Program-made: the position numbers and the translations under genes
Origin: Dictyostelium discoideum
Lineage: Eukaryota
Assembly: GCA_000004695.1 (NCBI GenBank)
Contig: CM000151.3
Coordinates: 6,624,001 to 6,688,000, forward strand
Direction: 5' to 3'
DNA length: 64,000 bases
The notes under the pieces: model-generated
What the model was told of the DNA's origin: nothing
What the model saw: only the letters and a program-made list of their open reading frames with translations
Database searches by the model: none
In this document: positions 1,425 through 45,752 of the stretch, one piece after another
Layout: each line of letters opens with the position of its first letter
How positions within the stretch are numbered: the stretch's first letter is position 1

Positions 1425-2696
1425 TTTCGAATGTTTGACTTTGGACACATTTTTTTTATTAATATCTCTATAAAAGTGAAAGCCGTGGTTTATAATAATG
1501 AGTTTCTTTTTTTTTGATTGGTGGTCTAATTTTAACCACATTTAAAAATTGTCTCAAGTTTGTTATTTTATTTTTTTTTAATTTTTTTTTTTTTTTTTTT
1601 TTAACAATTTAAATCAATCGTGTTTCTACCAAAAATAGCCACCAGTTCATTTATAACAAAATCACTTCGGGTTTTTTCAATTGATTTTTTTTTTTAATTT
1701 TATTTATTTTAAATTATTTTTAATGATTTTTTTTTTTTTTGTGTCCTTCAACATTTTGAAAGCGGCGAAAGAGCGATAAACGTCACAAATTCTCAGAACA
1801 ATGCAAATTCAAAATTGGTGGATGTTTATTTTAATTTTTTTTTATTTTTTTTCTTTTTTTTTTATTTTTTTATTTTTTATTTTTTTTTGTGTTAGTAAAT
1901 GAAGAGAGTAAATTCAAATAAAATAAAATAGTTAAAATTAAAAGAAAAAAAAAAAAAAAAAATATTTACTTTTTTTTTTTTTTTGCTCTCTTACCAAAAA
2001 AACCTAGCAAAACAATAAAAAAAAAAAAAAAAAAATTAAAATGACCCAAATAAAATAATTGATTGTGTTTAAATTTTTCTTTTTTTTATTGTTTATTAAA
2101 ATTTCTCAATATAGAGTTATTAAATTCATGATGAAATTAACAATATAACTACTTCCATGAAATTAAATGAATTCGTAATACAGCTATTAAACCAGATTAT
2201 AGTTGTAATTTTACAGGTTCATTATCAATTGCTCTAAAAATAAATCAAGATTTGTTTTACTATTTCCATCATCAGATGTTTTGAGTTAAAATATTTCCAA
2301 AATTGTATCCTTTTTTAAATCACTAATGAAGATAGTTTTACCAATGCACTAACAACATGGCCATTAAATTAAATCCAATGTATAAAATGAGAAGGTGAAA
2401 AATAAAATTTATAATAGATATGATAATTTTTTTTTGTAAAAAAATCTTGATCTATTTTTTTTTTTTCCACAAAAATTTATACCAAAAAAGGTTTTTTATT
2501 TATTTGTGACATATTTTTTTATACAAACCTTAAAAAAAAATGAAAAAAAATATATTTTTCATTTTTTTTTTTTTTTTTTTTAACAACAATTTAATTATAT
2601 TTTTATTATGAATTTAGTATAGATAAATAGGACGCTCAAAAATATAAAAAATGAAATAAAAAATAAAAAAAATGTAATAAAATGATTAAAAATTCT

Positions 2697-2737
<41 letters not shown>

Positions 2738-3740
2738 GAAAATTTAATTATTTATCATTAATTTTTTATAAATGTATTTTTTTATTTGAAGAAAAATTGG
2801 AGGGAATATTCTTTAAATAAAAAAAATAGATACTAAAAAAAATAAAATTGATTTTATTGGATTGCCATGTGTAAGGCTTCGGTGTTTTATTAATATTTGT
2901 TCATTAGAAAAAAAAATAAATAAAAATATAAATAAAAATAAAAAAAAATTTTAAATTCTCCTGTTTAATTACAATAAATAATCCATTCTTCTATATTAAT
3001 TTTATTATTAAAAAAAAAAAAAAAAAAATAAAATAAAAACTAAAATTATAAAATTTAATTTAAGTTAAAAAATCAATATCGCTTTTTGTTTTTATAAAAA
3101 AATTAAAATTTTAAAATATATTTTTTTTAAAAAAAAAGAAAGTAAAACGAAAAGTAGAACTAATTTTAAAAATAAAAAAAAAAAATTATAAATTTTTAAA
3201 ATAAAATATCTTATTTATTTAAGTTGCCACATCATATTTTTTATAAAAAAAAATAAAAAAATAAAAAAACTAAAACAATCATCTTTCAAATTCTAAAAAG
3301 AATAGTGTGACATCACAGAAAAAAAAAAAAATTAAAAAAACTAAAAAAAAACTCTCGAACCAGAAGATGAATTCGTAAAATTAAAATATCTTTAATGATT
3401 TTTTTTTCATATGAAAATAATTTTAAAGGAATTATTTTTTTTTTTTTTTTTTTTTTTTTATTGGCCTTTAATAATTTGAATTAAAAAAATAAAAAAAAAA
3501 ATTCCAAAAAAATAAATTCTAAAAAAAATCTAAAAACTATTAATCATTATAAAAAATCAAGATATTTAGAAAAAAAAATTAAAAAAAAAACTATTTTTTT
3601 TTTTTTTTTTTTTTTTCGTCCATTGATATAAAAAACAATTCATTCTGTTTAAACATAAATTAGCTATTTAAAAAATAAATAAAATTTTAAAACAAATATA
3701 TATATAATAAATAAAAACAAAAAAAAAAAAAAAAAAAAAA

Positions 3741-4430
3741 ATGAAATTATTATTAACATTAATTTTAATAATTGTAAATTATTGTTGTTTCATAAATGCA
3801 AATAAATTATTTGTAAATTTTGTTGGATCATATAGTTCAAATACATGCGATGGTAATCCAAGTGGAATTGGTTTTTCTTTAGCTGTTGGCCAATGTCTTC
3901 CAATTGAAGGTGTTTTATCATATGTTATAAACGATATGCCACCAACTACCAATTGGTTCATTACAATGGGCGGCAATGGCAATAGTTTCACACTCAAGCA
4001 ATATGATAGCCAAGATCAATGGTGCAAACAAGACCCAATCAATACACTCCAATTCGATAATTTCGATACTTGCGTAGAACAACCAGCTTTCATCAATGTT
4101 AATAATTCTCTTCTTGCCGATACCCCTGTTGTTTATTCCAAATTAACTCTCTCCCAAAATGTTCCAACCTACGCTCCAGACTCTGTGATCATTGGTCAAT
4201 ACAATACAAATACTAATGTTTGTACCTACAATGATCAACAATTCGGTGTCTCTTACACCTCTGGTACTGTCATCTATAATGAAAATGGTATTTCAATTCA
4301 TGTCTTATGTAATCAAGTTAATCAATCAATGATGTTCAAATGTAAAGAAAGTAAATGCGGTGAAACCTTTATTGACACTTATTGTCAAATGTCTGGTGAT
4401 GTTCAAATTTATTGTAACTCAAATAATTAA
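3741..4430 (+). CDS. Secreted Cys-rich protein (229 aa), tandem paralog 1; possibly ponticulin-like family
   Basis: Intact ORF with an N-terminal hydrophobic signal peptide (MKLLLTLILIIVNYCCFINA) and spaced cysteines with repeated 'sYs..tC' / 'iGQYNTNTNVC' modules. About 60% identical to the next gene. The ponticulin-like assignment is from memory only. Confidence 0.7.
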   Translation: MKLLLTLILIIVNYCCFINANKLFVNFVGSYSSNTCDGNPSGIGFSLAVGQCLPIEGVLSYVINDMPPTTNWFITMGGNGNSFTLKQYDSQDQWCKQDPINTLQFDNFDTCVEQPAFINVNNSLLADTPVVYSKLTLSQNVPTYAPDSVIIGQYNTNTNVCTYNDQQFGVSYTSGTVIYNENGISIHVLCNQVNQSMMFKCKESKCGETFIDTYCQMSGDVQIYCNSNN

Positions 4431-10219: not shown

Positions 10220-10907
10220 ATACCATATCATCAAAGAAAACATCATATATCAATTAGAGATGGTGATGATAATGATAATGAAGTAGATTCATTTAATATT
10301 TTAAGTCAAAATCAATTAATTCATCAAACATTTAATAATCCACAAAATCATCATTACTTTTCATCAACATCACCATCTTTATTGTATCACCACCAACAAC
10401 AAACACAATTAGAACAAAAACCAATTTATTCATCTTCATCTTCATCATCAATTTTATCATCACTATCATCATCAACAATTTCATTTTATAATTCTATTAC
10501 ATCATTATTTCTAACGTTTCCACAAACTATTAGTACAGATCCAATTATAATTAGAGAATACGAAAGATTAAAAATGTTACAAGAACAACAGGTAGGACCA
10601 AGACATACAGAGATTTTATTAAGAAAAGAGGATGGAGTTGGAGGAAGAAAAGCATTGAAAGAAAAGTTTGTTGAAATCTATGAATCCTTTTTCAATGGTG
10701 AAGATCCATCAGAGAACCAACCAATTTTTTGGGAACAATTATTTTTAATTAAAGTTAATATTCCATTCCTTGAAAGATGTATAATCCTAACATCTGAAGA
10801 GAATTTATTAGCTTTAAAACAAAATATTAATAAAATTTTCACTCAATCTTGTTTTTGGTTAAAAGATTCAAATTCTTTAAGATTAACTCATATTATTGAA
10901 GTAAGTA

Positions 10908-16649: not shown

Positions 16650-17903
16650 ATGAATTCCTACGCAGACGCGGCTAAAATGGCCAACCCCTCCACCCATATG
16701 GACGAGGCATCAGAGAACTTCATTAAGGAATTCTCCACAAAAACAGCAGAGATAAAGGAGACCTACCCCAAATTATCAATAGGCCTCAAAGACATCTCCA
16801 AATACTGCGAGACCATATTGAACATGACTGCTCTCTCAACCTACGAGAAAAACAACGGATTCTACCCAATTACACTCGAATTCCCCAAAATGGATCTCAT
16901 GGGGTTAGAAGAAATGAGAAAAACACTCTCAAACTACGATATCCCAATCGACAAGATATACATAGGCAAAGGAACTAGAAAAACGATCCACCTGATGATT
17001 AAAAACGAACAATCTCTCCTAAATATCATTAGAGATAGAAGCAAATTGGGAACCTTCATCACCTCCAGTAGAGACTACCACGTCCTCACAGGAAGAGTAA
17101 GAATTCCAAGAGAAAAGGCAGGAATAGTGGACGCCCTCATCAAAACTGCCTTTGCAGAAGAAATACCCTATGCAATATACCATACTATATACTCCACCGA
17201 CCACCTCCTAGTATTCGGTCTAATAGAATGCAAAATAGGCGATCAAATGAAATCTGGCCAACACAATACAGAAATCGCCAACTTTACCATCAGAACGGCC
17301 ACCAAAACCTACTCCTCACAAAAGAAAAATAAGAAAGTAGAGTCAAACAACACGGAAGAACCATTAGAAGATGAGATGACAGATGATCCTCCCAACATCC
17401 AAAACAGGATAGCAATCAAATCCTCTCAACCAAAACCACAACAACAAACATACAACCCAGCAAACAATAAGTCTGATAAACAATCAACCCAAGAGAAAAA
17501 AGCCCAATCAAAAAAGTCCTCTCAACCTCTTCCCCCCAAAAACCAAGCAGAATCTCAATCTGTCAAACCCACCACAACCACTACCACAACATCCAACGCC
17601 ATCCAAAAAGACAATGCCAACAAAACGAGCACTAACATCCATTCATCCTCGGAAAACAGAGAGAAGACACCAAACATCCCTCCATCACATAAACGCAAGA
17701 ACGAGGAAATCCACTCAAACAACGAGGTCACCCAACTCTCACCAACAATAAACAGAAGCAACCCTTACATCCCATCCACCCCTAAGACACCTGTCAAAAA
17801 AGAAAGGAAAGGAATCATTGAGAGCTTCATAGAGAGTATCTACCCTTCACCATCCAAACCGCAGCTATACGACTCCCAAGAGGAGATCGATATCATCTCA
17901 TAA
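16650..17903 (+). CDS. Retrotransposon ORF1 (417 aa)
   Basis: GC-richer than the host DNA. Basic/Ser-Thr-rich C-terminus. Its stop overlaps the ORF2 ATG (TAATG). Confidence 0.75.
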   Translation: MNSYADAAKMANPSTHMDEASENFIKEFSTKTAEIKETYPKLSIGLKDISKYCETILNMTALSTYEKNNGFYPITLEFPKMDLMGLEEMRKTLSNYDIPIDKIYIGKGTRKTIHLMIKNEQSLLNIIRDRSKLGTFITSSRDYHVLTGRVRIPREKAGIVDALIKTAFAEEIPYAIYHTIYSTDHLLVFGLIECKIGDQMKSGQHNTEIANFTIRTATKTYSSQKKNKKVESNNTEEPLEDEMTDDPPNIQNRIAIKSSQPKPQQQTYNPANNKSDKQSTQEKKAQSKKSSQPLPPKNQAESQSVKPTTTTTTTSNAIQKDNANKTSTNIHSSSENREKTPNIPPSHKRKNEEIHSNNEVTQLSPTINRSNPYIPSTPKTPVKKERKGIIESFIESIYPSPSKPQLYDSQEEIDIIS

Positions 17904-20900
17904 TGGTAGTAATCAAAATCAACCAATGGAATGTCAGAGGTTGGGGCACTGACACCTCCTTCAAAAACAAAACAGACTTTATCAAATCCCAATCCCCCCC
18001 AAACTCATTGGCACTAACCATAGTCAATGAACTCAACGCCGACGCAACACAAGCACACCAGCTATTTCCTGGCTCCATCATTAGCGCAACCAACAGAGGC
18101 AACGGAATAGGAATACTAAACCACAACAACCAAAACATAAAACTCTCACCAATATTCATAATAGAAGGTAGACTAATAATATCAGACATTCTAATAAAAG
18201 ATACCACAACGAGAATCTTGGCCATATACGCCCCGGCCCAACCTGATAAGGGAAAAATACTAGCTTGAACACTAAACAAACACTTGAACAACCAATACCA
18301 CAACCTAACGTCTAACCCTAAAAAAAACATCGACATCATAGCAGGTGACTTCAATTGTTTAGACTTCAATGACAATCACACATCAAATGACGACCAAGGC
18401 AACTTGACAACACAATCCCCAGATGAGATGGCCACAGTAATTGAAGCCATCAGAATTTCAAATAACCTAATGGATATGGACCAACTAAATAAAAGACCCA
18501 CCTTCTCAAGAACGATACACAACACAAACAATAACCTCACAAGAATCTTGGAAAGGAGACTAGACAGAATATACCTTAACAATAGCATAATCAACTACAG
18601 TCAATTATACTTAAGGAACCTAATCCCCCCAAAAATTAACGACATACCTCTATCAGATCACAACTTCCTATCAACCACCTTCACTCTACCCAACATACAG
18701 ACGAACATGCGCAGATGGAGATTAAAAAAATCCTCAATCCTCTCAAGCATAATGCTTAAGAAAATAGACATCCTACTTAACGATTATTCAAGGGAGCTGT
18801 CATCCAACCATAACTCTATTTCCTTCTCTCAACTCAACAGCTTACTGAACAAAATAAAACAACTATACACAGAATTTCAAAAACAAAACGACTACAACAA
18901 TAAGGCAAACATCAAAAATCTAATCTCCCTACTAGAGACAGAATTTAAAGACCAAGCCTTTGCAACCCTTTCAGCAATAAATGAATCTAAAAGAAGAGAA
19001 GAACAACTTAAACAAGAATTGAACAACTATTGCGAAGAAACCTCACTCAAGTACATCTCCGCGAGAATCAAGAAAAGACACAATGATTTCACCATCAACG
19101 CAGTAAAAGATACACAAGGTAGAACAATCAACAAACAGGAATTGATCGAAGAAGAATACGTAAAATATTACTCAAATCTTTATGACTACAAAGAAGATGA
19201 CCCACCATCTCATTATGAAATGTTGGAAAATTGGACAGTGACCAGGGACTCAACATGGGACAACCTTGAAAATGAATTCACATCACAAGAGATCCTAGAA
19301 GTAATAAAACAATTGAACCCACACAAATCTCCAGGCCCAGATGGAATTCCAAACTTATTCTACATAACACACAAAGAAAAACTAGCTCCAATACTGGCCT
19401 CAGCATTCAACGACACTCTAAGAAATCCTCATCTAATTAGCAAAAATTACAAAGAAGGCCTCATTATCACGATACCTAAAAAGGGAGATCCCGAACTAAT
19501 CAAAAACAGAAGACCAATTACACTGGCCAACTGTATATATAAAATCCACTCAAAACTAATAAACAATAGAATAATCCCAATACTAACGAAAGTGATCAAC
19601 CACAATCAAAAAGGTTTCGTACCAGGCAGATTCATTCTCGATAATATCATATCAATTAACGAATTAATCAACTATTGTAATGATAAAAGAATTAACGGAA
19701 TAATTACACTATATGATTTCGAAAAAGCTTTTGACTCGATCTCACACGGTTCAATACTCAGATCACTACAACACATCAACATTCCAACCAATATAATCAA
19801 CCTGATAATGAATCTACTCACCAAATCTGAGGCAAGAATTGAAATTAATGGTAGAACTACTATACCCTTTGAGATCAAAAGAGGAGTTAAACAAGGAGAT
19901 CCACTATCACCCACCCTGTTCGTCCTTGTAATAGAGGCTTTAGCTAGAAAAATTTTACAAGATGACCGAATTACTGGCCTTCCTCTAAACAACAGCAACC
20001 ACAGAGAGAAATTCCAAAGCTTTGCAGACGATTCGGCTTCAATGGTCCCAGACTCTCAACAACTTGAATTAGTACTACAACACTTCAATTCATTTTGCAA
20101 AGCCACTTCCTCAAAACTAAACATCGACAAATCTTCATCAATTCTTATAGGCAACCCAGACAATACCAACCAAAGAATTCCAATATCTACAAATCCAGAA
20201 AGATACTTGGGATACTTCTTCACAGGCAAAGGGATAACAAGAAAAATGCCAGAAATATTAAACACAATAAGATCATCCTTAGTACTATGGAAAACCACTG
20301 ACTCAACAATCAAAACCAAAACCAACATCCTCAAAGCATTCGCACTCTCTAAATTAACCTACTATTCATATGTAGAGAACTTTAAGGAAGAGGAATTAAA
20401 CCAAATCAATAAATTGGTCGAATGGTTTTTATCGGCACCTAACAACAAAAATGCTAGTGGATTTCAAGTTATTAATTTAATGAGAACCAAAAGAGCAAGA
20501 TACCCACTAAATGTAGGGGGCTGGAACATTTGGAATATAGAATTGAGACAACTGGCGCAGAAACTTTGGATCATAAACCAGTTCATCCTAGCACTAGAAA
20601 CCAAACAAACAAACTCATCTCATCACAAAAGCTGGGAATATCAGATCCAAAAAAACAAATTCACATCCAGATACCTAAAAGAAAACTTAGACGAATGGAA
20701 CAAAATAAGAATAAAAAAAGCAATCTTCAACAATAATCTCACATCCATAAAAAACGAAAATGGACAACCACTTTCACTGGCAGAATGGTATACCACAATT
20801 CAAGACCAAAATCCAACCATCCCTAAAACGGAATTCCAATCATCTCTAAACTTAAGAGGCTACAGCTATAATCAACTCTTCAACAACATACTGAAGATAA

Positions 20901-21493
20901 AAGACCCTAAAACAAGAGACACAATGTTTAGATTCCATGCCAGATGCCTTCCAATAAACTACCTTCACAACAAACAATGCCCACTCTGCAAAGAAGATAT
21001 GAGCAAAGACCCATACGGTCACCTGTTCTTCTCATGCAAGAAAACAAAACAATTCATAAAAATAAATAAACTCAAAAATTTCATCTATATTACCACAGGC
21101 AAAGGTAAAAACTGGCACCATACAAACTTTGAATGGAACTATAAAGCAATAGACTATGATCTAACTAGATCATTCGCATATAGAAACCTAATGGCCCTTA
21201 TCCTCCACAACATTTGGATTTGGATTTGCAATCAAATATACAGTGAAGATCCTTTAACAGATGAATCACTATCATACAGCTCCCTTCTAAAGAAATGGCA
21301 CAAATTGGCCACTCTAGAATACATCAAAAAAGCAAAAGATCTGAAAAACTTATCAGCAAAAGACCATAATAACTTCAAAGATCCTAAGATCCTTCTCACT
21401 TCAACGATCAAGCTAAGAAAAACAACAGCTAATTACTATTGTATTCCAGAATCATCTCTCCCAAATATTATATCTTTTGATCAATTCATATGA
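17903..21493 (+). pseudogene. Retrotransposon ORF2 (endonuclease-RT-zinc finger) interrupted by a single in-frame TGA at 18266..18268
   Basis: Track ORFs 17903..18268 and 18284..21493 are in the same frame (both coordinates are 2 mod 3). They are separated only by TGA, within the endonuclease domain. Confidence 0.75.
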
Positions 21494-37121: not shown

Positions 37122-37154
<33 letters not shown>

Positions 37155-37295
37155 TGTGCGGATTAGCCAAATCTAACATTTTTTAATTTTTTTTTTTAAA
37201 TTTTTCAAATCAAACACTTTTTTTTTTTTTTTTTTTTTTTTTTTTATTTGTTTTTTTTTTTTTATTATTATTTTTTTTTTATTATTTTTCTTTTT

Positions 37296-37862
37296 TCACC
37301 TTTTTCTTTGGTATTGATTTCTTTTTTTTTCAGACCAGAAGTTTAGGCTTTGGCGATAAAATCCAATGAACAGTTCTTTGTTTTTAATTAGAGAATTATC
37401 GATGGTGTCAATAATCTCATCAAGGAAGGACCCATGGGAATTACGTTCTCGGTAGAAATGGTTCTTGATATAGCCAAAGAAACGCTCAATGGGATTCAAC
37501 TCTGGAGAATAGGAAGGAAGAAATATCAATTGAACCGAATATTGATTAAACAATTCAAATAGTGCATTTAAAGCTTCGATACCACCGTGAATTGGAGCAT
37601 TGTCCATTACCAATAATGAACCAGGCTTGCAAAATCCACTTTCCAAAAGTTCTCTAACATATTGAAAGAAGTCTTCAGTATTATTGGTTTTATCACGGAT
37701 TTTATACAAACAATCATCCAAACTGATGGTGAAAAACACATTGTAGGTCTCAGAAATGCTGGTGCTATTGGTAACATAAACCGGCTCTCCAATCGGTCCA
37801 ACAGCTTTAGATCTCCTTAATTCTAATAAAAAACCTTATTAGTTTTAATTATTTATTTTGTA

Positions 37863-37911
<49 letters not shown>

Positions 37912-38458
37912 AAAAAAAATTAATAAATATAATTACCTTATAATGTTAATAGTGGAATTCAGAATAGATGGAAAGAAAGACAATTATTTAATTAAAAATA
38001 TTTTTTAAAAAAAAAAAAAAAAAAATTAGTATAAATATTTATATTCAATCTAAAATAATAAAATATAATACCTCTAGAAGAAAAATAAATTTTTTTCCAA
38101 TCAGTATTGTAAATTATTGTATTAAAATAAAATAATTTTAATAAATTTTCAATTTTGTATTTATTTTCCTAAAAAAAAAAAAAAAAAATTAACAAATAGT
38201 TAGTTATTTAATATATTAAAACTTTTTTACTTACTTGTTTATAGGTTGGAGAGTGGTAATTCCATTTCAATTCTTTGAATATTGAACATATCCTCGATTT
38301 GTTGACCTTTTTATAAAAAATAATTGAGTTGATTTCTGGTCAAACCATATTCACGAGCAGCTCTACTTATATTACCGATTCTAACCCCATATTCTAATGC
38401 ATTGTATATTCTCTCAGTATGCTCAATTAAGTGAGTTAAACTTCTTTTAGGTTTCATT
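37296..38458 (-). mobile_element. Remnant of a Tc1/mariner-like DDE transposase gene (Dictyostelium DDT-type DNA transposon), with introns and frame disruptions
   Basis: C-terminal catalytic region: LLVMDNAPIHGG...LIFLPSYSPELNPIERFFGYIK (DDE signature DNAPIH / ELNPIE), in frame back to about 37845. N-terminal HTH MKPKRSLTHLIEHTERIYNALEYGVRIGNISRAAREYGLTRNQLNYF sits at 38458..38320 on the minus strand. Intron-like GTAAGT...TTTTTAG segments (about 38230..38165 and 37935..37846) and a frame break lie between the two parts. No terminal inverted repeats are recognisable. Confidence 0.6.
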
Positions 38459-38460
38459 AT

Positions 38461-38700
38461 ATTGTTATTACTATTATTACTACTATATTGCTATTGCTAT
38501 CACTATTGTTACTATTATTACTACTATATTGCTATTACTATTATTACTATTACTACTATATTTCTATTGCTATTACTGTTATTACTATTATTACAATTAT
38601 TACAATTATTACAATTATTACTACTATATTTCTATTGCTATTACTATTACCATTACTACTATATAGCTATTGCTATTAATATTTCTATTTCTATTTCTAT
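38461..38700. repeat. Complex minisatellite (about 36-40-bp period; tattactactatattgctattgctat... units)
   Basis: Direct read. It directly abuts the transposase N-terminus. The track ORFs 38462..38761 and 38488..38679 are translation artefacts of this repeat. Confidence 0.85.
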
Positions 38701-38937
38701 TACAATTATAAATATAATTAATTATATTATTATTTTGGTTTTATTAATTATGTTTTTTTAATTGTTTTTATTATTATAAACTGCAAGTGGTTTTTTTATT
38801 TAAAATAAAAAAATGATCATTTTAACCAAAAATGTAGATGTGATGGTTTATTATTATAAAAACTATGGCCAATTGTATTTCATTTTATTTATAGTTGGTT
38901 AAAATAATGAGTGAATTTTTTTTTTTTAACTGTGAAA

Positions 38938-39030
38938 CATTTCCCCCACTTTTTTTTAAATTAAAAAAAGAAAAATAGTTGGAGATATTTTCCCCCACTT
39001 TTTTTTAAATTAAAAAAAGAAAAATAAAAT
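38938..39030. repeat. Direct duplication: tttcccccacttttttttaaattaaaaaaagaaaaata occurs twice
   Basis: Copies of about 38 bp at 38940-38978 and 38989-39027, separated by gttggagatat. Confidence 0.8.
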
Positions 39031-39470
39031 AAAATAAAAATAAAATCTTTTATCAAAACAAAGATAACTTTTTTAATTTTTTTTTTATTTTAAAAATAAT
39101 AATAATAATAATAATAATATTAATAATAATAATAATAATAATAAAAATAAATAAATAAATAAAATTCAATTTATTTTATTTCCAAAAAAATTTTAGTATA
39201 AAATATTTTTATTGTATAGTTTTAAATTTTTAAAATAAAAAAAAAAATATTCATAATAATTAACTTAGAAAGTTTTTTAATATTTTATAGCGAGTTTAAA
39301 CCCTTTTTTTATTTTTTTTTTTTTTTTTTTTTTTTTTTGTTTGACTTAAGTGAGTTTTTTTAATTTTTTTTTTTATGATTAATTTGCTCAAAACGCACTA
39401 TATTTTAATTTTTTTATTTATTTTATATGTTTTTTAAATTATTACTTTATTTTCTTTTTTTTTTTTTTTT

Positions 39471-41132
39471 TTATAAAACAATATTACCATGTTTTTTAGT
39501 TGGATTTGATAATTTTTTATTTTTAAGAATTTCTAAATCTTCACAAATGTATTGACGAGACATTCTTGGTGGGATGATATCATCAATGAAACCTCTACGA
39601 GCAGCTGGTAATGGATTAGCAAATTTATCATTGTAAATTTGTTCTTGTTCTTTGATGTCACCTTTGCCTCTAAAGATGATTTCTACGGCACCTTTTGAAC
39701 CCATGACAGCGATTTGACCGGTTGGCCAAGAGTAATTGGTATCACCACGAAGATGTTTGGATGACATAACATCATAGGCACCACCATAAGCTTTACGAGT
39801 GATAATTGAGATCTTTGGAACGGTAGCTTCAGCGTAAGCATACAATAATTTAGCACCATGTCTAATGATACCATTGTGTTCTTGATTAGTACCTGGAAGG
39901 AAACCTGGAACATCGATGAGAGTTACAATTGGAATATTGAAACAATCACAGAAACGTACAAAACGGGCGGCCTTAACAGAGGCATCAATGTCTAAACAAC
40001 CTGCGAGTTCTTTTGGTTGATTGGCAACGAAACCAACAGTACGACCCTCCATACGAGCATAACCAACGATGATATTCTTGGCAAACTCTGGTTGAATCTC
40101 AAAGAATTCTCCTTCATCAACGATACGTTCAATGACTTCTTTCATATCGTATGGTTTGTTTGGATCGTCTGGAATGATTTGATCCAAGACATCATCTTCA
40201 CGAGATGGTGAATCGAATGCTTCTCTCATGGCTGGTTCATTTGGATTTGATGGGAGGAGAGTGACAAATTCACGAACTCTCTTTAAGGCATCGATATCAT
40301 TGTCAAAAGCAAGATGGGCAACACCAGATTTGGTGGTATGGATTTTAGCACCACCTAAACCCTCTTGAGAGATCTCTTGATTGGTGACAGATTTGACAAC
40401 ATCTGGACCAGTGACAAACAAGTAACTGGTGTCCTTTACCATGAATACGTAATCGGTGATGGCTGGTGAATAGACGGCACCACCAGCACAAGGTCCCATG
40501 ATGACAGAGATTTGAGGAATGACACCACTTGCCATAACATTACGTTGGAAAACTTCAGCATAACCAGCCAATGAAGCGATACCTTCTTGAATACGAGCAC
40601 CACCACTATCGTTTAAACCAATGACTGGTGCACCAACTAACATTGCTTTATCCATGATCTTGCAAATCTTTTCAGCATGTGCTTCAGAGAGTGAACCACC
40701 ATTGACTGTACTATCTTGACTGAATACAAATACCAATTTACCATTGATTGTACCATGACCTGTTACAACACCATCACCTGGTGTCTTTTCAACGTTGAAA
40801 TCAGTACAACGATGGGTTACCAACATATCGTACTCTCTAAATGATCCATCATCCAATAAGAGATCCAATCTTTCACGTGCTAATAATTTACCTTTACCAT
40901 GTTGAACATCAATCTTCTTTACACCACCTCCTAATTGTGCTCTCTCTGTTTCTTCTTGAATTCTACCATTTATTCTTTCAATTGTTGATTCATATTTTAC
41001 TGCTTTGAATGGTTCTTTTGCTGGTGTTGGTTTACCTGTAGCAAAACTTTTAATACCTTGTGATGATACATTTTTACAATTCTTATTCAAAAATTGAATA
41101 GTATTTTTATTTAATAATCTTCTTGATAACAT
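39471..41132 (-). CDS. pccB: Propionyl-CoA carboxylase beta chain (carboxyltransferase), mitochondrial precursor, 553 aa
   Basis: Full-length collinear similarity to PCCB (…[123 protein letters not shown]…). The N-terminus is basic (MLSRRLLNK). Confidence 0.9.
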
Positions 41133-41249: not shown

Positions 41250-41749
41250 AAAAAAAAAAAAAAAAAAATTAAATTTTTAAAATTTCAAATTTATAAAAAA
41301 AAAAATAAAAAAATAAAAAATAAAAAAAAAAAAATTATTTTATTATTTGATCACTTCATCTTCATCATATTTTTTTTTTTTTTTTTTTTAACAAAAAATA
41401 TTTAAATATTTATAATTTCTTTGTTTTGTTTAATATAGAAGAGTAATCAATTGATAGTGATGAAATTAGAAGTGGGGGTGGAATGAAAATGGACCAATTA
41501 AATTAAAATATTTCAATATAAAGAATTTTTATTTTATTTTATTTTTTTTTTCACTTGTTTATATAAATTTCAAATAAAAATAAATCAAAAAAATAAAAAA
41601 AATCATTTTAATCTCCAAAAGTTTATAATATTTTTTTTTTTTCCATTTCCTTTTTTTTTTTCCTTTTTTTGGAGGGTATGTTACTATTGATAAATATCAT
41701 ATAATTATGTTATCTAACTATTGTTCTTAGTAAGTATCGAAATTGGAGA

Positions 41750-41804
<55 letters not shown>

Positions 41805-41958
41805 AGCCCAGATATGTTGAAAAAATAATTAACAATTTTCTTTTTATTTTTATTTTTATTTTAATCAATAATCATTTTAATCACCAAAAGTTTATAAAAT
41901 ATATTTTTTCCTTTTCCTTTTTTTTTTTTTTTTTCTTTAAAATAAAAAAATAAAAAAA

Positions 41959-42005
<47 letters not shown>

Positions 42006-42021
42006 AAATTAATTATTAAAA

Positions 42022-42639
42022 ATGAAAAATCTATTTATATATACATTATTATTATTTTTATTTTTATTTTCATTAATAAAAGTAAAAAGTCAATCGTTAT
42101 CTGGTTTTCCAATTTATTGGTAGGTTTATTTATTTTATTTTATTTATTTTTATTCTAAAAAACAATTATTTATTATTTTTCTACTTAACAGGCCATGTTT
42201 TCCGTCTTGTGAGCCTTATGGATATTGTGATGATTATAATGGAAAATGTGTGTGTGAAAAATATTCGACTGGTTTTGATTGTAAAAAAAATTTTAATTTT
42301 ACATCCATTACACCTGCTTTTGTAACTGGTATAGTTTATTTGAATGGTGATTTTTCAAATATTTTTGATCGCAATTTAACAATTGATATAGGTAGTGGAC
42401 AATGTAATATTACCAATAAAAATGAAACAGTTATAGAATGTATAGTTGGACCAGGTGAAGGTTCTCATAGTTTTGTCATTAGAAATGATTATTTAGTGCC
42501 ATTTGTAACTACCTTTGAATATAAATATTTTACTTATCCACTTGGTTGTTCATCTCATGGTGCTTGTAATAAATATAATGGATTATGTGATTGTAATATT
42601 GGAACTTATGGTAATCAATGTTACCAAGAAGATTATTAA
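42022..42639 (+). CDS. Secreted EGF-like + IPT/TIG domain protein, 2 exons, about 181 aa
   Basis: Exon 1 42022..42119 (signal peptide; donor GTAGGT), exon 2 42192..42639 (acceptor aacag). Cys-rich EGF-like module (CFPSCEPYGYCDDYNGKCVCEKYSTGFDC), IPT-like fold (ITPAFVTGIVYLNGDFSNIF...CNITNKNETVIECIVGPGEGSHSFVI), second EGF-like module (CSSHGACNKYNGLCDCNIGTYGNQC). Confidence 0.6.
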
Positions 42640-42699
42640 ATAAAAATAAAAAAATAAATAAATAAATAAATTAAATAGATATAACTATTTTACATAAAA

Positions 42700-44188
42700 A
42701 GTTCAATTCAATATACAAAAGGTTTAAATTGTGACCTATTAAATGCATCAATATCATCAGTTGAAACACCAACAATTGATGGTGGTGTCGTTAAATTATT
42801 AGGTGATTTTAAACATATTTTTAGTATTCTGGGAAATATTGAAATTTCAATTGGTAATTCAATTTGTAATCAAATTCCTATGGAAAATACACAATTCATA
42901 ATTACATGTCAATAGAACCTGGTTTTTCTAATAAAACAATTACTTTATCTGATGGAAATGGAGCAACATTATCATATAAAGGATTTTATTACCGTTGGCC
43001 ATGTCCCGTTCCTTGTAATGATTTTAATGGAAAATGTGTGTGAAAAATATTTAACTGGTTCTGATTGTAAAACTCTAACATCAGTTACACCAACTTTTGT
43101 AAGTGGGGGAAACGTTTATTTAATTGGCGATTTTTCAAATGTTTTTAATCTCAATTTAACTATTCATTTAGGTGATCAACAATGTAGAATTAACAATATT
43201 AATCAAACAGTTATAGAATGTGTTATTGGGCCAGGTGAAGGTTTTCATAATGTTACAATTTCAATCAATGTTATATTAACATTTAAAACTATAGATACTC
43301 CCTTTGAATACAAATATTTTACTTGTCCACTTAGTTGTTCATCACATGGTACTTGTAACAAATATTATGGATCATGTGATTGTAATATTGGAACTTATGG
43401 TAATCAATGTCAATTTTTTGAATGTCCATTAAATTGTTCAAATCCAAATGGTGCATGTGATAGTAAAACTGGTATTTGCAACTGTGATGATAAACATGGT
43501 GGAGAATCATGTAATTTTATTTTATGTCCATTACATTGTTAAACTCCAAATGGTGTATGTGATGGTAAAACTGGTACTTGTAATTGTGATTATAAACACG
43601 GTGGTGAATCATGTGATTTTACTTTATGTCCATTTAATTGTTCAACACCAAATGGTATATGTGATGGTAAAACTGGTATTTGTAAATGTAATAATCCATA
43701 CACAGGAGAAGCTTGTGATTTAATTATTAAATGTAAACAAGAATGTTCTTTAAAATATGGAAATTGTGATACTCATACACAAGATTGTATATGTGATACT
43801 CAAACCAGAGGATTATCATGTGAAGAATCAAGATTATTAATCGAATCAATAGAATTAACAATTTAGATGGTGGTACAAATACAATAGTTGGATATTTTGG
43901 TAGAACAACATCATTATTAACAATTAAAATAGGTGCTTCACAATGTACAAATATTAAGGTATTTAATGATACAACATTAAATTGTTTCATTGGTCCAGGA
44001 GAAGGAACTCATAATGTAACGATTACAGATGATGATCTTTCATTTACTGCTATTAATAAGTTCCAATACATTGGAGAAAAAATCAAAAAAATCAAAGATA
44101 TCAGGTGGTACAATTGTTTGAATAACTGCTGGTTGTGTTGTTGGTCTATCAGTACTTGGAGCAGGTAGTTATTAAAAACTTAATCATT

Positions 44189-44190
<2 letters not shown>
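42700..44190 (+). pseudogene. Degenerated paralog array: IPT/TIG + tenascin-type EGF repeats + C-terminal TM segment, disrupted by frameshifts and nonsense codons
   Basis: The same domain logic as 42022..42639 is repeated and extended (4 EGF repeats CPLNCSNPNGACDSKTGICNCDDKHGGESC…, 3 IPT units, hydrophobic tail GGTIV.ITAGCVVGLSVLGAGSY). Lesions: TAG at 42913-15; a 2-bp loss in a (GT)n run creating TGA at 43040-42 (tgtgtgtga versus tgtgtgtgtga in the intact gene); TCA>TAA at 43540-42 within CPLHC*TPNG; frame shifts near 43860 and 44110. Confidence 0.65.
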
Positions 44191-44242
<52 letters not shown>

Positions 44243-45752
44243 TAGATAAAAAAAAGAATTCATTCAACTTGTAATTGCCACCAAAATATTTAAATAATAA
44301 TAATTTAAAATAAAAAAAAAAATAAATAAAAAAATACAAAATTAAAATCTTCTTTTTTCTTTTTTCTTTTTTATTGTATTTTAAATAAAGTATAACTACC
44401 ATAATATTCATATTTTAATATTATTTAAAAAAACATTTTTAATAATTAAAATATCTTACCAAATGATTGTCTTTTATCACCAATTTTTATAATTTCCAAT
44501 TAATTAATTAATGGGGTGGAGGGGTGGGGGTGGGAGGGGTAAAAAAATTGATATTTACATAAATCATAATTGTACATGACAATTTTTTAAAATAATTAAT
44601 TTGATTGATTCATCATAAAAAAAAATTAAATAAAAAATTAAAAAAGAAAAAATTAAATCGGCAATTTTAACAACAACAAGAACATTTCGATAAGATCATA
44701 CATTAATTGCAATCACACACAAACACCCAAAACTTAATTACGCACGTACACCACGACACACTAACATAAAAAATTATTAAGAGAAAAAAAAAAAATAAAA
44801 AAAAAAATAAAAATTAAATAAGTAGAAAATAAATAAAAAATTAAATCACTATTTCAAACATAGCATTTTATTAAGTTACAATTTCTGAATAACAATCACA
44901 CACTTTCTCACTCTCTACCAGTTTTGTTCTATTTAACAAATAAATACATTGTGGTGGGTGTGTGAGAGAGAGTGAGGTGATAGTGTGTGACAGTGTGTGT
45001 GTGAGTGGTATATATTAACCTAATTAAAAACTTTTTTCTACACATCAAACAATATTAAAAGGTGGTAAAAATCACTAAATAAAATTAAAAACCATTTAAT
45101 TTTTATCTCGAACAACAACTCCACCACACATATATAGATAAAATACATATAGGTCTACCCCTTTCTTTTTTTTATTTTTTATTATTTTTTTTTTTTTAGT
45201 TTTTTTTTTATATAAAAAAAAAAAAACAACATATAACTGATGATAAAATTTTAACCTTGTTTAATATTATTTTTAAAAATTTTTTTATTTTTTTTTATTC
45301 ATTATTTATTTTTAAAATATTACTTTAAATTAATATTAAAACAATTATTATAGCTTGTGTATTTTATCTGTGCATAAAATTAAATATTAATAAATTAAAA
45401 TTACAATTGTGTGTAATTTTTTAAAAAAATTAAAATAATTATTTTCAATAGCTAATAATAACAATTCCTTTTATAATTTTAATTTTAAAAATAAAATAAA
45501 ATAATTTTAATTTGAATTATTTTCCAATTAAAAATAAATTATTTAATATATATATATATATATAATTTTATTTTAATAAAAAAGCAATAGAAAGTGATAT
45601 AGTTGTATATCCTAATTATTTTTAAAAAAAAAATTATATTTTTAAAAAATTAATATATTAAAAAAAAAAAAAAAAATAACAAAAATTAATAAAAATAAAT
45701 AATTACTTAAAAGTTATATATACTTAATTATTTTTTTAAAAAAAGAATAAAA

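Follow-up and report, generated by a model that had tools for sequence, protein, structure and literature searches.

A 64-kb window of Dictyostelium discoideum chromosome 2 (AX4 haplotype), the whole stretch of DNA that was analysed, contains at 42022-44175 two adjacent pieces of EGF/IPT coding sequence: a short gene, here called gene 1 (42022-42639), and a longer, interrupted tract (42709-44175). The initial annotation described an intact small gene beside a decaying multi-domain paralogue, likened the architecture to Tgr/Lag proteins and proposed a locus under birth-and-death evolution. This raises the question of which gene once occupied the site, how the two pieces are related to it and to each other, and whether gene 1 still encodes a functional product. 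We consider it likely that the AX4 locus is a young, lineage-restricted gene, now dead and split into two remnants that stem from an old tandem duplicate pair.

Decay of the downstream tract

The tract 42709-44175 is a dead EGF/IPT/transmembrane (TM) gene, a pseudogene member of its family. Three-frame translation downstream of gene 1 recovers EGF, IPT and TM coding sequence that jumps between frames; gene 1 itself is present as initially described, and the two-piece pattern is borne out. The compared assemblies are those of Holland et al. 2025 (PMC12745789) and the loci are referred to by label, L002 being an independent D. discoideum assembly of AX2 type and L001 and L008 being cf. discoideum isolates. 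Lesions were placed by alignment to the allele of isolate L003 (794 codons), the only intact version among the compared genomes, and that alignment confirms the downstream tract as a decaying multi-domain type-I membrane protein gene with identifiable lesions. The features of the region are as follows.

42022..42119, plus strand: exon 1 with the signal peptide (MKNLFIYTLLLFLFLFSLIKVKSQSL...), ending in phase 2; homologous to L003 exon 1
42120..42191, plus strand: intron 1, 72 nt, GTAGGT...AACAG; aligns with the 87-nt intron 1 of L003
42192..42617, plus strand: main part of exon 2, a divergent EGF-IPT-EGF block equivalent to EGF2-IPT_B-EGF3 (nucleotide and amino acid comparison, Pfam)
42618..42648, plus strand: rearrangement scar, 31 nt copied in inverted orientation from codons 1-10 of pccB (30/31 identity to 41102-41132, minus strand)
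42649..42708, plus strand: AT-rich filler that separates the two remnants and contains stops in frame; no homology to the intact allele
42709..42998, plus strand: 5' part of the tract, the EGF1 tail (QYTKGLNC) and IPT_A; aligns to L003 from 8567
42999..43410, plus strand: B block of the tract, EGF2, IPT_B and EGF3 (alignment to L003 and to gene 1)
43411..43830, plus strand: three 34-amino-acid EGF array units (CPxNCSxPNGxCDxKTGxCxC...) and a terminal EGF (translation, Pfam)
43831..44097, plus strand: IPT_C and juxtamembrane linker (L003 alignment; tblastn 93% amino acid identity, frame 3)
44098..44175, plus strand: TM segment, tail lost (L003 alignment)

Homology to L003 begins at 42709 within EGF1, the 5' end of the gene being missing. 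One nucleotide has been lost from the IPT_A part (42909/42910). EGF2 has suffered an 18-nt deletion after 43012, which removed one of its cysteines, and the loss of 2 nt from the TG run at 43035-43042, visible directly in the alignment with gene 1; a 12-nt deletion in the linker follows near 43070. In the EGF array TCA has been replaced by TAA at 43540-43542, where the sister EGF units read TCA. IPT_C and the juxtamembrane linker are thrown out of frame by a loss of 1 nt at 43860-43861, and a gain of 1 nt near 44084 restores the frame. Within the TM segment GGA has become TGA (44119-44121), and an 18-nt deletion together with TAA at 44173-44175 has eliminated the conserved tail (FYKYRRNKKIELFM). 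In total the tract carries four frameshifts and three nonsense codons, and a further three deletions leave the frame unchanged. The two lesions named at the outset, a 2-bp slip in a (GT)n run and the TCA>TAA substitution, are thus among those found, and the predicted minimum of five disabling changes is exceeded (at least 8 counted against L003). Pfam analysis of the repaired translation, proposed as a check, returned EGF_TEN, EGF_2, EGF_laminin and three IPT/TIG domains. The predicted composition of four EGF, three IPT and one TM is correct for the IPT and TM parts and falls short for EGF, of which there are six modules and one partial. The number of EGF array units varies among alleles (L003 six, L004 four, L008 nine, L001 one).

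It is extremely improbable that the lesions are sequencing or assembly artefacts, or unrecognised introns, in a gene that still works. Genes have been called at this site in automated annotations of the new assemblies (P0002, 196 aa; P0004, 236 aa), but the called models are fragments which start in a wrong frame or end at a lesion. AX4 and L002 are identical base for base over 41901-44300, so the lesions are not sequencing errors. The finding named initially as one that would refute decay, stops lying within introns of a continuous open reading frame (ORF), is not borne out: no AT-rich GT..AG interval spans any lesion, and the L003 allele is an uninterrupted exon in this region. With L002 identical and no intron across any lesion, both kinds of artefact are excluded. 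The ORF of 194/196 aa is a fragment of a pseudogene.

The tract was under constraint until relatively recently, since overall it differs from L003 by a synonymous divergence (dS) of 0.07-0.13 with a nonsynonymous to synonymous ratio (omega) of 0.30-0.35. The values are dS 0.066 and omega 0.34 for 42709-42998, and dS 0.131, omega 0.35 and a Jukes-Cantor (JC) distance of 0.06 for the B block at 42999-43410. The clock was calibrated by dS of pccB (propionyl-CoA carboxylase beta), the minus-strand ORF 39471-41132, which is exactly XP_643178.1: 0.045 for AX4-L003, 0.019 for L003-L004 and 0.109 for AX4-cf. discoideum.

The intact allele, its family and its fate in other genomes

In L003 a signal-peptide exon is followed, after an intron of 87 nt, by a single exon without interruption; spliced explicitly, the two yield the 794 codons, ending ...YKYRRNKKIELFM. 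A search with the repaired tract yielded 22 family proteins of 600-830 aa from group-4 Dictyostelium (E down to 1e-294), two of which map to the same syntenic site in other isolates of the D. discoideum clade. Twelve full-length members align end to end and have many invariant cysteines in common. Their N-terminal ~135 residues have no match in Pfam; a profile of this part found the CI-MPR repeats among PDB sequences at E=5e-17, and the AlphaFold2 model (pLDDT 89, pTM 0.84) gave top Foldseek PDB matches that are all MPR/MRH domains (TMq 0.55-0.67). The profile match and the fold matches together place an MRH-type domain in the family layout, which reads: signal peptide, MRH, EGF1, IPT_A, EGF2, IPT_B, EGF3, 34-aa EGF array, terminal EGF, IPT_C, TM and tail. 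The tail of intact members is conserved as ...YRRNKKIELFM (pattern ...Y.YR.NKK.ELFM). Judging by these domains, the protein probably serves as a lectin-like receptor, at the surface or in trafficking, carried on a rigid stalk of EGF and IPT modules. Literature searches with DDB_G0289399 and guessed neighbouring DDB_G identifiers found nothing, and this MRH-lectin/EGF/IPT receptor family of group-4 Dictyostelium is apparently undescribed.

Two paralogues, DDB_G0289399 (P0022, 669 aa, AX4) and ACTFIW_004555 (P0009, 722 aa), have the module order EGF, IPT, EGF, IPT, EGF array, IPT, TM in common with the locus, as well as the same invariant cysteines and, in intact alleles, the same conserved tail. 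ACTFIW_004555 is the nearest paralogue (59% identity) and lies 11-23 genes away on the same chromosome. In contrast to both, the AX4 locus is without an MRH domain, lies in two separate remnants and contains no continuous ORF. Nowhere in the 64-kb window is there a match to residues 1-146 of the intact protein (signal peptide and MRH), and an uninterrupted frame with TM and tail is likewise absent; the tract does retain EGF/IPT/TM homology in the module order of the family. The invariant Cys and Gly residues of EGF2, IPT_B and EGF3 are not all kept, gene 1 having lost C394 and one glycine of the GG pair, and the tract a cysteine of EGF2.

The proposed likeness to Tgr/Lag proteins appears to go no further than analogy. 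The tgr family has been defined by TM, IPT/TIG and Ig-like E-set repeats, EGF being unmentioned in the two accounts (PMC12745789; bioRxiv 10.1101/2025.10.22.684067), and Holland et al. (PMC12745789) took detectable similarity to annotated tgr genes as the criterion of membership. The AX4 tract has three IPT/TIG domains and a TM remnant, but most of its ectodomain is made of EGF modules, with ancestrally an MRH domain, both outside that definition, and no tgr or lag name occurs among the 22 homologues of the repaired tract. The family is defined by its N-terminal MRH/CI-MPR-type domain and its EGF arrays, which are foreign to tgr and set it apart from tgr as described. Both the tgr proteins (TgrB1, TgrC1/LagC) and the MRH-EGF-IPT proteins are type-I surface proteins of Dictyostelium with IPT/TIG domains, and both form large birth-and-death families with many pseudogenes and truncated members without TM. 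Both include loci that are pseudogenes in AX4 and open in some other strains, as has been reported for tgr (PMC12745789; bioRxiv 10.1101/2025.10.22.684067). The resemblance appears to be one of evolutionary behaviour and of a single shared domain type, not of membership.

Other relatives match in part. ComC-type proteins (distant matches P0026 and P0027) also contain EGF/TIG modules but carry ComC_SSD (PF22933) and DUF7949 (PF25820), where the MRH-EGF-IPT family has its N-terminal MRH domain; neither PF22933 nor PF25820 was found by Pfam in gene 1, the repaired tract or the intact allele. Among the mannose-6-phosphate receptors and MRH-domain lectins (CI-MPR/IGF2R, CD-MPR, OS-9, ERLEC1), the MRH-type domain matches the CI-MPR repeats by sequence profile and fold; unlike in these proteins it is a single domain on an EGF/IPT stalk, and it is deleted from the AX4 copy. 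The 34-aa units match Pfam EGF_TEN, EGF_Tenascin and EGF_laminin, as in teneurin/tenascin-type EGF arrays, whose architecture is otherwise unrelated.

At the corresponding site of other isolates the gene order is AMP-binding gene (+), pccB (-), family gene (+), G-alpha (+) and flippase (-). The L004 allele has an 11-bp insertion in EGF2 and an inversion of ~40 bp in the TM segment and has lost its tail; L001 has a large 5' deletion and stops. L008 carries a short form, composed of signal peptide, EGF, IPT, EGF, nine array units, IPT_C, TM and tail, which is broken by TGA in EGF3 and a 39-nt deletion in TM. One haplotype is thus intact and four are independently broken (AX4/L002, L004, L001 and L008). 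In two D. citrinum isolates a relic of ~200 nt, comprising EGF3 and the first array unit, was detected by blastn and nhmmer and missed by tblastn. Searches with tblastn, blastn and nhmmer found nothing credible of the gene at the locus in D. dimigraforme, D. firmibasis or D. purpureum; matches in D. purpureum to the T-rich exon 1 and the intron were discounted as low-complexity. The gene at this site is confined to the discoideum and citrinum clades.

Downstream of the main gene, at a distance of ~290 nt, L003 (10707-10885) and L004 (about 10560-10740) contain a decayed second 3' end, which covers the last part of IPT_C, the TM segment and the tail and is interrupted by stops. These relics are 96% identical to each other and lie at a JC distance of 0.207 from the functional 3' end.

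The proposal of birth-and-death evolution fits these data: sister species have a relic or nothing, one haplotype retains an intact gene and four have broken it independently. The site is structurally unstable, and the process is ordinary though well-documented gene death, a known kind of event unusually well resolved. It offers a compact, fully dissected case, outside the well-studied tgr family, of a social amoeba gene that arose and then died several times independently. A working gene persists in one wild isolate, and the AX4 copy bears a scar borrowed from a neighbouring gene.

Automated models keep frames open at this site (L001 8001-9152, L004 8001-10272, L008 6187-7980, L002 5071-6591) by means of invented introns or wrong-frame starts. 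The models concerned, P0003, P0007, a 587-aa model of L008, P0002 (196 aa) and P0004 (236 aa), are best regarded as pseudogene fragments.

Gene 1 and the history of the two remnants

Gene 1 is a truncated chimera of the same gene lineage. Its exon 1 matches the signal-peptide part of the L008 short form at 87% identity and L003 at 75%, and is 42 nt shorter than exon 1 of L003 with the phase unchanged. Intron 1 reads GTAGGTTTAT...CTAAAAAA(A)C...AACAG in both gene 1 and L003 and is the ancestral intron of the family. Exon 2 spans 42192-42639, its EGF-IPT-EGF block beginning directly behind the former exon-2 acceptor. A public AX4 protein sequence is identical to the 181-aa product, which scores above the cut-off for TIG and EGF_2 in Pfam; the assembly index contains no called gene for it. 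The duplication relationship between the two pieces implied by the initial annotation is upheld, as exon 2 is 78% identical in nucleotides to 43013-43410 and the block is nearest to the B block of its own locus (63-64% amino acid identity, against 40-50% to any paralogue). It lies at a JC distance of 0.20 from the B blocks and of 0.25 from that of L008.

Several features argue against gene 1 having been small and intact from the beginning. MRH, EGF1 and IPT_A are absent. The family-invariant first cysteine of EGF3 (C394 in P0009 numbering) has been replaced by tyrosine, and the invariant GG pair (G323/G324 in the same numbering) has been reduced to a single glycine. Over its final ~55 nt the EGF3-like part is 100% identical to EGF3 of L003, and it is joined via an ATGT microhomology to the inverted pccB copy, which provides the last six codons (YQEDY and the shared Cys) and the TAA at 42637-42639. 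The pccB sequence is the only other match to the scar in the window at up to three mismatches. Because the stop and the last codons come from this inverted copy, the end of gene 1 is a rearrangement scar. In annotation, gene 1 should thus not be taken as an ancestrally small, intact gene; it is probably non-functional, or at best a marginal leftover ORF, and we think it unlikely that it yields a functional product.

The AX2-214 model P0004 places an optional 111-nt intron (GTAATC..AAAAG) at 42611-42721; this splice joins in frame, and the model then runs into the TAG at 42913. Splicing gene 1 by hand onto the tract via the acceptors at 42679 and 42701 gives stops and was ruled out. Homology of 'GFPIYW' in exon 1 to 'GFYYRW' before EGF2 was also ruled out, as the alignment with L003 identifies exon 1 as the ancestral signal-peptide exon.

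The two remnants would go back to an old tandem duplication at ~0.2 substitutions per site, the duplicate pair having presumably been eroded differently in each lineage by deletion and non-allelic recombination. In AX4 the downstream copy has lost its promoter, signal peptide, MRH and most of EGF1, and has then accumulated frameshifts, nonsense codons and deletions. The upstream remnant, gene 1, retains the promoter side, signal-peptide exon and intron 1, runs from there straight into the divergent EGF-IPT-EGF block and is cut off by the stop of the 31-nt inverted pccB fragment, which came in by a microhomology-mediated rearrangement.

The gene 1 block differs from both B blocks by dS 0.28 and JC 0.20, and thus predates by far the separation of the AX4 and L003 haplotypes. 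A tandem arrangement is supported by the decayed 3' copy of L003/L004, which at JC 0.207 is of similar depth, by AX4 exon 1 being nearer to L008 than to L003, the reverse of the genome-wide relationship, and by the L008 short form, whose 5' block is JC 0.25 from all others but whose 3' block differs from AX4 and L003 by only 0.056. The terminal TAT TAA of AX4 also resembles the TGT TAT TAA of the decayed relic in L003/L004; with just two diagnostic sites in favour, derivation of the AX4 tail from the downstream-relic type is a possibility.

Certain observations weigh against this history. In a neighbour-joining tree of EGF-IPT-EGF blocks gene 1 and the L008 short form do not form a clean group, and polarised characters divide 5, 4 and 2 among the three possible block groupings. 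A simple two-copy model does not sit easily with the order of the remnants, since the divergent piece lies upstream in AX4 and downstream in L003. The frame of gene 1 is, moreover, more open than neutral decay predicts: in neutral simulations a frame still free of stops after the 60-70 substitutions of its branch had a probability of ~0.006-0.05, and its three indels all have lengths divisible by three, so that much of its divergence arose while it was translated and selection for translatability, past or present, may have acted.

With trees and characters so divided, an internal segmental duplication, or recombination of old haplotypes, explains the data nearly as well. It is possible, though we find it doubtful, that a single ancestral gene had its EGF2-IPT_B-EGF3 part duplicated internally or imported from a divergent allele in place of MRH and EGF1. 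The nearly tied characters leave room for such an origin, the gene 1 block groups with its own B block and with no paralogue and begins precisely at the old acceptor, and the 55 nt identical to L003 EGF3 suggest conversion or recombination. However, the dS of 0.28 to both B blocks is more than twice the allelic dS between AX4 and L003, which excludes a recent duplication in place; the equally old second 3' copy in L003/L004 and the affinity of AX4 exon 1 to L008 instead of L003 also count against this origin.

The openness of the frame bears on another alternative, namely that gene 1 encodes a small secreted EGF-IPT-EGF protein which still functions and is kept by selection beside a dead paralogue. 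We regard this as unlikely, despite a good signal peptide, the intron in correct phase, retention of six of six EGF2 and two of two IPT cysteines, and the precedent of tgrB2, a strongly expressed TM-less member of another Dictyostelium family. The gene 1 branch (dS ~0.22, dN ~0.18) has omega ~0.8, against ~0.35 on the branches of the constrained B blocks; the change of the EGF3 cysteine leaves an odd number of 13 cysteines, the GG pair is shortened and the stop codon was supplied by an accidental pccB fragment. The protein is further confined to the AX4/AX2 haplotype and is recorded in an old UniParc-derived source alone, NCBI and UniRef having no entry for it. On balance we favour the two remnants of a tandem duplicate pair.

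The membrane-distal EGF-IPT-EGF module might also be a hypervariable recognition determinant, with old lineages kept across discoideum and cf. discoideum isolates, but we hold this to be improbable. The block falls into three lineages that are JC 0.20-0.25 apart with omega ~0.8-1.4, whereas the 3' part of the gene differs by only ~5% among the same haplotypes; AX4 exon 1, too, groups with L008 and not with its closer relative L003. At 13 positions with at least 80% agreement among 11 paralogues all three lineages have changed, with no new residue common to all; these counts are small. On this reading the locus would constitute a second polymorphic, often inactivated surface-receptor locus beside tgrB1/C1, with gene 1 as a surviving secreted form; if diversifying selection did act on the divergent N-terminal module, the locus would bear on cell-cell recognition.

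Neighbouring sequences

The window has the AT-rich composition of dictyostelid DNA. Between the AMP-binding gene and pccB, AX4 contains ~2.2 kb (37154-39403) not found in isolate L003; this segment holds a Tc1-like DDE transposase fragment annotated as DDB_G0276339, the neighbour of pccB (ORF 37296-37739, minus strand). The automated model of L002 fuses the DDE_3 domain with pccB into a single 804-aa protein. In L008 a DDE_Tnp_4/HTH_Tnp_4 transposase gene (2387-4406) lies between G-alpha and the family gene and is not present at the other loci.

The divergent intergenic region between pccB and gene 1 contains two copies of an element of ~60 nt, TAATC[T/A]CCAAAAGTTTATAA... followed by a T/C-rich run, at 41609-41669 and 41878-41938, 269 nt apart, with ~50 nt of poly(T) between them (41753-41800); cf. 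discoideum L001 has one copy. Immediately 3' of the dead gene there is an (AAT)n microsatellite (44191-44243); as the same repeat stands 3' of the downstream relic in L003/L004, it is an old feature of the flank and not a new expansion. A G-rich tract (GGGGTGGAGGGGTGGGGGTGGGAGGGG) at 44513-44539, in intergenic DNA of ~20% GC, could form a G-quadruplex.

The G-alpha neighbour is annotated as two genes (156 and 195 aa) at L003 12511-13669, L004 12327-13484, L005 5623-6784 and L006 4708-5877, and as a single 359-aa gene in L001, L002, L007 and L009, which could reflect inconsistent annotation or a real lesion. Elsewhere in the window, two long plus-strand ORFs (417 and 1069 aa) occupy 16650-21493, a stretch with strong AT and GC skew and a GC content of 35-42% against a genome background near 22%.

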